DNA of 64,000 bases from Escherichia phage HEMP5. Below, one piece after another: positions 46,995 through 47,162 of the stretch. The stretch's first letter is position 1, and the number at the start of each line of letters is the position of its first letter. The notes beneath the pieces were generated by a model that saw only the letters and a list, made by a program, of their open reading frames with translations, searched no databases and had not been told where the DNA came from. Where the stretch lies: the sequence record OR424388.1. One strand, written 5' to 3'. The position numbers and the translations under genes were made by a program.

Positions 46995-47060
46995 CTGTTT
47001 AAGCTTTACCGCCAGAAATAATTCCAAAGTTGTTAAAATCGTATCCAATATCGTCAACAT

Positions 47061-47162
47061 CTACTTTAGGACTGCACCAAATACGCGTGGTAATTCACGA
47101 TACTCAGCCATAAGATGTTGGTCGGTCAGTTCAGAAACAAGTGTTAAATTGATACGAGTCAT
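47061..47162 (-). pseudogene. denV: Truncated denV (endonuclease V, pyrimidine-dimer glycosylase) remnant
   Basis: Hand translation [33 protein letters not shown]-stop. The first 31 residues match the T4 EndoV N-terminus (138 aa in T4). Homology then ends and a stop follows. Confidence 0.8.

Follow-up and report, generated by a model that had tools for sequence, protein, structure and literature searches.

The 64-kb stretch of DNA analysed here (the window) belongs to a T4-like phage of the genus Tequatrovirus, and its best match among phage records over 22 kb has 96% identity at approximately 90% coverage. Downstream of the lysozyme gene e lies a truncated copy of denV, hereafter the stump, and all genes near it are encoded on the minus strand. 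The features of this region, with the evidence for those identified by similarity, conservation, scanning or reconstruction, are as follows.

48481-48026, minus strand: nudE
47988-47500, minus strand: e (lysozyme)
47503-47222, minus strand: intact gene for an internal head protein of 93 aa (MKTYSEF...; phrog_3499, E 1e-46)
47219-47190, minus strand: early-promoter-like element upstream of denV (sequence and conservation)
47172-47168, minus strand: Shine-Dalgarno sequence GGAGG, 5 nt 5' of the stump ATG (conservation)
47162-47061, minus strand: denV stump, 33 codons plus TAG (tblastn, Pfam and PDB matches)
47073-47069, minus strand: deletion junction with one remaining AGTCC, a 5-bp direct repeat (reconstruction)
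47073-46999, minus strand: 3' remnant of an RB69ORF125c-type gene for a small internal head protein, its last 24 codons plus TAA
46994-46966, minus strand: promoter-like site TTTACG-17-TATAAT upstream of the IpIII-type gene (scan, 10/12 matches)
46935-46357, minus strand: intact gene for an IpIII-type internal virion protein of 192 aa (phrog_5341, E 1e-117)

The stump starts with an ATG at 47162-47160 and ends with a TAG at 47063-47061 (minus strand). Its first 31 codons are those of denV; codons 32 and 33 (Leu and Lys) and the stop belong to the remnant of the neighbouring gene read out of frame, with CTA AAG TAG forming the end of the denV frame inside that remnant. A tblastn search of the 64-kb window with T4 DenV returned a single ORF, aligned over residues 1-33 at 94% identity (E 1e-15), and a phmmer search against the PDB placed the stump on residues 1-33 of T4 EndoV (2END, chain length 138; E 1e-14). 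The Pfam profile PF03013 (Pyr_excise) scores 28.3 bits on the stump (cut-off 23 bits; E 2e-6) and aligns over positions 1-35 of 81 only. This match to EndoV is far beyond chance. An earlier note on this DNA had read the ORF beginning at 47162 as residues 1-31 of T4 endonuclease V followed by two codons and a stop, which is upheld with one correction: residue 13 is Thr where T4 has Ala (A13T), as it also is in the closest intact relatives. Save for this substitution, residues 1-31 are alike in the stump and in T4 denV (PF03013; PDB 2END, 1VAS).

All five of the residues Thr2, Arg3, Arg22, Glu23 and Arg26 are kept in the stump, of which we take Thr2 to be the catalytic alpha-amino nucleophile of EndoV and Glu23 to be catalytic as well, with roles for the three arginines. 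The rest of the protein is missing. T4 DenV residues 34-138 showed no similarity by tblastn anywhere in the 64-kb window, nor did this search find further denV-like sequence there, a point that the earlier note had left to be checked. DenV is 137-138 aa long in relatives with the intact gene, a length that this ORF, which ends after codon 33, does not approach, and the similarity to the profile of the pyrimidine dimer DNA glycosylase family is confined to the N-terminal part. Judged from its sequence, the stump is a pseudogene remnant and not a functional member of the Pyr_excise family, and its proper annotation is as a pseudogene instead of as "endonuclease V".

The control region in front of the stump is preserved. 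The promoter-like element consists of GTTTAC (47219-47214; in a sigma-70 reading the -35 hexamer is TTTACT, 47218-47213), a 17-nt spacer and TACTAT (47195-47190), all on the minus strand, and a promoter is annotated at the matching place in the record of phage Lutter (NC_054924). GTTTAC and GATACTATA are unvarying in all six aligned sequences, T4 among them, and the GGAGG is the same in every aligned relative with an intact denV, T4 having GGAG. Across the first 93 coding nt and the 80 nt that precede them, the window and the intact Lutter allele are 100% identical; the stump and its leader have thus undergone no decay. In a generic sigma-70 scan the denV promoter scored 8/12 matches and stayed below threshold, and we therefore rely on conservation for this element. 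On this comparison, the earlier description of promoter and ribosome-binding site as intact is borne out in the sense that both are unchanged relative to presumably functional relatives. The T4 denV Shine-Dalgarno GGAG is RegB-resistant (RegB paper), which has no bearing on the truncation.

The 24 codons that follow in another frame (47073-46999) had been seen before, as a tail that the earlier note did not recognise, and can now be identified as the 3' end of the neighbouring internal-head-protein gene. This remnant, which has neither a start codon nor a ribosome-binding site of its own, matches the C-terminus of an 84-aa protein on a metagenomic (Logan) contig, L015, and of RB69ORF125c (86 aa) and Lutter gp125; compared with the PHROGs, the intact 84-aa protein belongs to phrog_2667, "internal head protein" (E 1e-17). 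In intact relatives, denV (137 aa) is followed, after a gap of 6-12 nt, by this RB69ORF125c gene of 84-86 codons. In Lutter, a 1-nt frameshift relative to RB69 and the Logan contigs divides the small internal-protein gene (L001 2765-3020) into two overlapping ORFs, 41 and 51 aa long; either the gene is truly a pseudogene there or the frameshift is a sequencing error.

Alignment to relatives located the endpoints of the deletion, for which the earlier note had proposed a comparison with T4 denV and the T2 and T6 genomes. All close relatives align to the locus as two segments separated by 517-518 bases that the window lacks, and intact loci were examined in detail in Lutter (NC_054924), RB69 and two Logan contigs, L015 and L016. 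When 517 bp are taken out of RB69 or L016, the resulting sequence differs from the window junction at 3 of 160 nt, and the same holds when 518 bp are taken out of Lutter, the additional base being due to the 1-nt frameshift in its neighbouring gene; removal of 517 bp from L015 gives 5 mismatches in 160 nt. In L015 coordinates, the lost segment comprises denV nt 95-414 (320 nt), the 12-nt spacer and the first 185 of the 255 nt of the 84-codon gene. Of the two parental copies of AGTCC, the first lies within denV codons 30-32 and the second within codons 60-62 of the 84-aa gene; their spacing is 517 bp in RB69 and 518 bp in Lutter. The window retains a single copy, at 47073-47069, and the junction has no inserted bases. 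Both Logan contigs carry one SNP in one of the two copies, and the sequence of the immediate ancestor is for this reason inferred from Lutter and RB69. Among random deletions of 300-800 bp at the Lutter locus, at least 5 bp of microhomology occurred in 0.76%.

These observations point to a denV pseudogene that arose in a single illegitimate deletion between copies of a short repeat, a reading to which we assign a probability of about 0.88. The ancestor would have carried e followed in turn by the gene for the 93-aa internal protein, denV (137 aa), and the genes for the 84-aa internal protein and the IpIII-type protein, and a gene order of this type persists in Lutter, RB69 and the two metagenomic contigs. 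Slippage or end-joining between the two AGTCC copies would then have removed 517 bp, and because 517 is not divisible by three, the denV frame continues into the remnant in the wrong phase and meets a stop two codons later. T4 has long been known to undergo deletions between short direct repeats, the rII deletions being of this kind. Like those spontaneous deletions, the 517-bp deletion is clean and bounded by a short repeat; it lies in a variable, non-essential region.

Another process is known from the hyperplastic regions of T4-type genomes, in which cassettes are shuffled at gene boundaries through promoter/stem-loop (PeSL) elements (PMC2839356). In contrast to such shuffling, the breakpoints of the 517-bp deletion are inside two coding sequences. 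Just past the IpIII-type gene, at 46337-46354, there is a perfect 7-bp stem-loop, AGGCCTA-TACT-TAGGCCT, coinciding with the point where similarity to T2 resumes (46329/46330), and it may be a cassette boundary element.

The deletion was found in no other sequence. When a junction-spanning query was searched against 50,697 phage records, the top-ranked matches were all two-piece alignments, and a single-piece match would have ranked first; the exact junction pattern had 0 matches in IMG/VR, GTDB genomes and JGI metagenomes, and no database record contained the exact 33-aa stump peptide. The IpIII-type protein of the window occurs in identical form on three Logan contigs, and the two of these that reach upstream both have an intact denV. 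The value of the stump as a lineage marker, suggested in the earlier note, is not supported by this distribution. Since the junction was found nowhere else and the stump is undecayed, the deletion looks recent and private to this phage, and it may have arisen during laboratory propagation. The isolate can conveniently be recognised by PCR from its unique junction.

A junction seen once, with flanks as undecayed as would be expected of a very recent event, propagation included, would also be obtained if the phage population still had an intact denV and the deletion were confined to the assembly, to a minority variant or to one passaged in the laboratory. We regard an artefact of assembly or stock as improbable. 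A 5-bp repeat does not lead assemblers to collapse 517 bp of unique sequence, the junction cleanly shows the marks of a microhomology deletion, a class long familiar in T4, and denV has been lost naturally in T2, T6 and the Mosigvirus ESCO47. The possibility that a sequencing error at the breakpoint had broken the frame, raised in the earlier note, does not fit either, as the frame is lost through a deletion of 517 bp and not through a single-base error.

The earlier note had further proposed the stump as a plausible molecular basis of the higher UV sensitivity of T2 and T6 relative to T4. The window has a mean identity of 95.7% to T2 (AP018813) and T6 (AP018814) and is therefore neither phage. 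Like the window phage, T2 and T6 are Tequatroviruses with no functional denV at the e-proximal variable region, and this absence is in line with classical genetics; a search of both whole genomes with T4 DenV found no denV-like sequence (best tblastn E >4), while the same search found full-length denV in the positive controls Lutter and RB69. The loci themselves are built differently. In T2, the interval corresponding to window positions 46330-47504 is replaced by approximately 563 bp holding one internal-protein gene of 157 aa, with boundaries at gene ends, and in T6 (L010 10489-11506) regB follows directly after e, a much larger block being gone. At neither locus is there a stump, a denV promoter region or a tail remnant, in contrast to the window phage, where an intragenic-to-intragenic deletion of 517 bp has left two gene fragments. 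With denV wholly absent from T2 and T6 through different and larger rearrangements, the stump cannot be the molecular basis of their UV sensitivity, and with a junction shared by no other record it is extremely unlikely to be the T2/T6 v-minus allele or a lineage marker that explains that phenotype. What stands of the earlier reading is a denV truncated behind an unchanged 5' region; its extension to T2 and T6, and to lineage, does not.

Several further observations were made in these records. T6 is without the whole ipIII-to-regB interval of T4. The T2 homologue (L006 11940-13484) of window ORF 45640-46209 is annotated at only 57 aa. Product names in AP018813 and AP018814 are often plainly wrong, making their annotation unreliable: an internal-protein gene, for instance, is called "valyl tRNA synthetase modifier", nudE is called "glutaredoxin", and small early ORFs are called "major capsid protein".

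The perfect preservation of promoter, ribosome-binding site and 31 codons could also indicate that the stump has been retained for some use, as an expressed 33-residue peptide or through its promoter and leader, which would drive the downstream internal-protein gene. A second denV stump, in Mosigvirus vB_EcoM_ESCO47 (OM386662, L013 1501-1629), might be taken in the same sense. This 42-aa ORF resembles DenV residues 1-36 with 75% identity, and, as in the window, it is a 5' denV fragment in the same neighbourhood with no C-terminal part. However, a recent deletion predicts perfect preservation equally well, and a better promoter-like site belongs to the downstream gene itself. The ESCO47 stump, moreover, has the substitutions R3Y, R22C and R26C, and this loss of Arg3, Arg22 and Arg26 argues for neutral decay rather than conservation. 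We therefore consider a retained function of the window stump very unlikely.

The ESCO47 stump differs from that in the window in its genus, its breakpoint and its downstream partner (a vs.8-like gene), and its already decayed state marks it as an older, independent event. In both phages denV was lost while its promoter, ribosome-binding site and first 31-36 codons stayed. Behind this there might be, in place of coincidence, a hotspot for deletions where helix H1 begins, or selection for the early promoter and leader of denV as a driver of downstream genes, but this is unlikely. Insertion of an intron or homing endonuclease was considered for ESCO47 and rejected, as no C-terminal half of denV is present and a vs.8-like gene follows the stump. 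The ESCO47 feature at 2658-2876 labelled "pyrimidine dimer DNA glycosylase" has no similarity to DenV.

The genes on either side of the lesion are intact. The 93-aa internal head protein gene overlaps the end of e and is also present in Lutter, RB69 and the Logan contigs. On the other side, the promoter-like site of the IpIII-type gene lies outside the deletion, and Lutter has a promoter annotated at the corresponding place; the gene keeps this promoter-like site of its own. Pfam PF26861 (Phage_T4_IpIII) was matched on proteins identical to the IpIII-type protein. This protein is 100% identical on contigs L015-L017, where the DNA is approximately 96% identical; the coding differences are hence all synonymous, implying strong purifying selection. 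On those contigs the small internal-protein gene is separated from IpIII by an extra gene of 104 aa (phrog_3966), which neither the window nor Lutter possesses. Among phage records, e is 99.6% identical to phage 132 and ECO07P4/5, and the IpIII region reaches only 96% at best. When RB69, a Mosigvirus, is compared with window positions 46936-47230, the 5' region of denV and the tail of the small gene have 97-98% nucleotide identity, which suggests recent horizontal exchange of the denV/internal-protein cassette between RB69 and this Tequatrovirus. T4 denV shares with the stump its promoter motifs, a Shine-Dalgarno sequence and a position in the region beside e and the internal-protein genes; it follows ipIII-ipII in T4, whereas denV lies between internal-protein genes in the window.

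With 33 of the 138 codons of T4 denV kept, approximately 75% of the EndoV protein is absent and no complete fold is possible. Residues 32-138 are lost, and with them what we take to be the last part of helix H1, helices H2 and H3 and the aromatic segment at the C-terminus. The stump may still be transcribed and perhaps translated into a 33-residue peptide, which could not adopt the EndoV fold. The denV gene is almost certainly non-functional here, and we infer that the stump is a null allele and that one small internal protein has been lost with it. The window covers 64 kb of a genome of approximately 165-170 kb, and as denV, found at 1124 places in 1118 records, is essentially a single-copy gene, a second intact copy in the remainder of the genome is unlikely. 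T4 v mutants are approximately twofold more sensitive to UV than wild type. The window phage would be expected to lack pyrimidine-dimer glycosylase activity and to resemble them, with approximately 2x the UV sensitivity of a denV+ relative, a prediction that matters in practice where use of the phage involves UV exposure or UV inactivation.

In total, the locus holds a genuine pseudogene of an ordinary kind: a new null allele of denV, which is well known, dispensable and already missing in classical relatives. The assumption that the UV sensitivity of T2 and T6 is due to a denV stump is thereby corrected. Alongside full cassette replacement, as in T2, and large-block loss, as in T6, the short-repeat deletion in the window phage would represent a third, mechanistically distinct route to denV loss in T-even phages, of modest importance.
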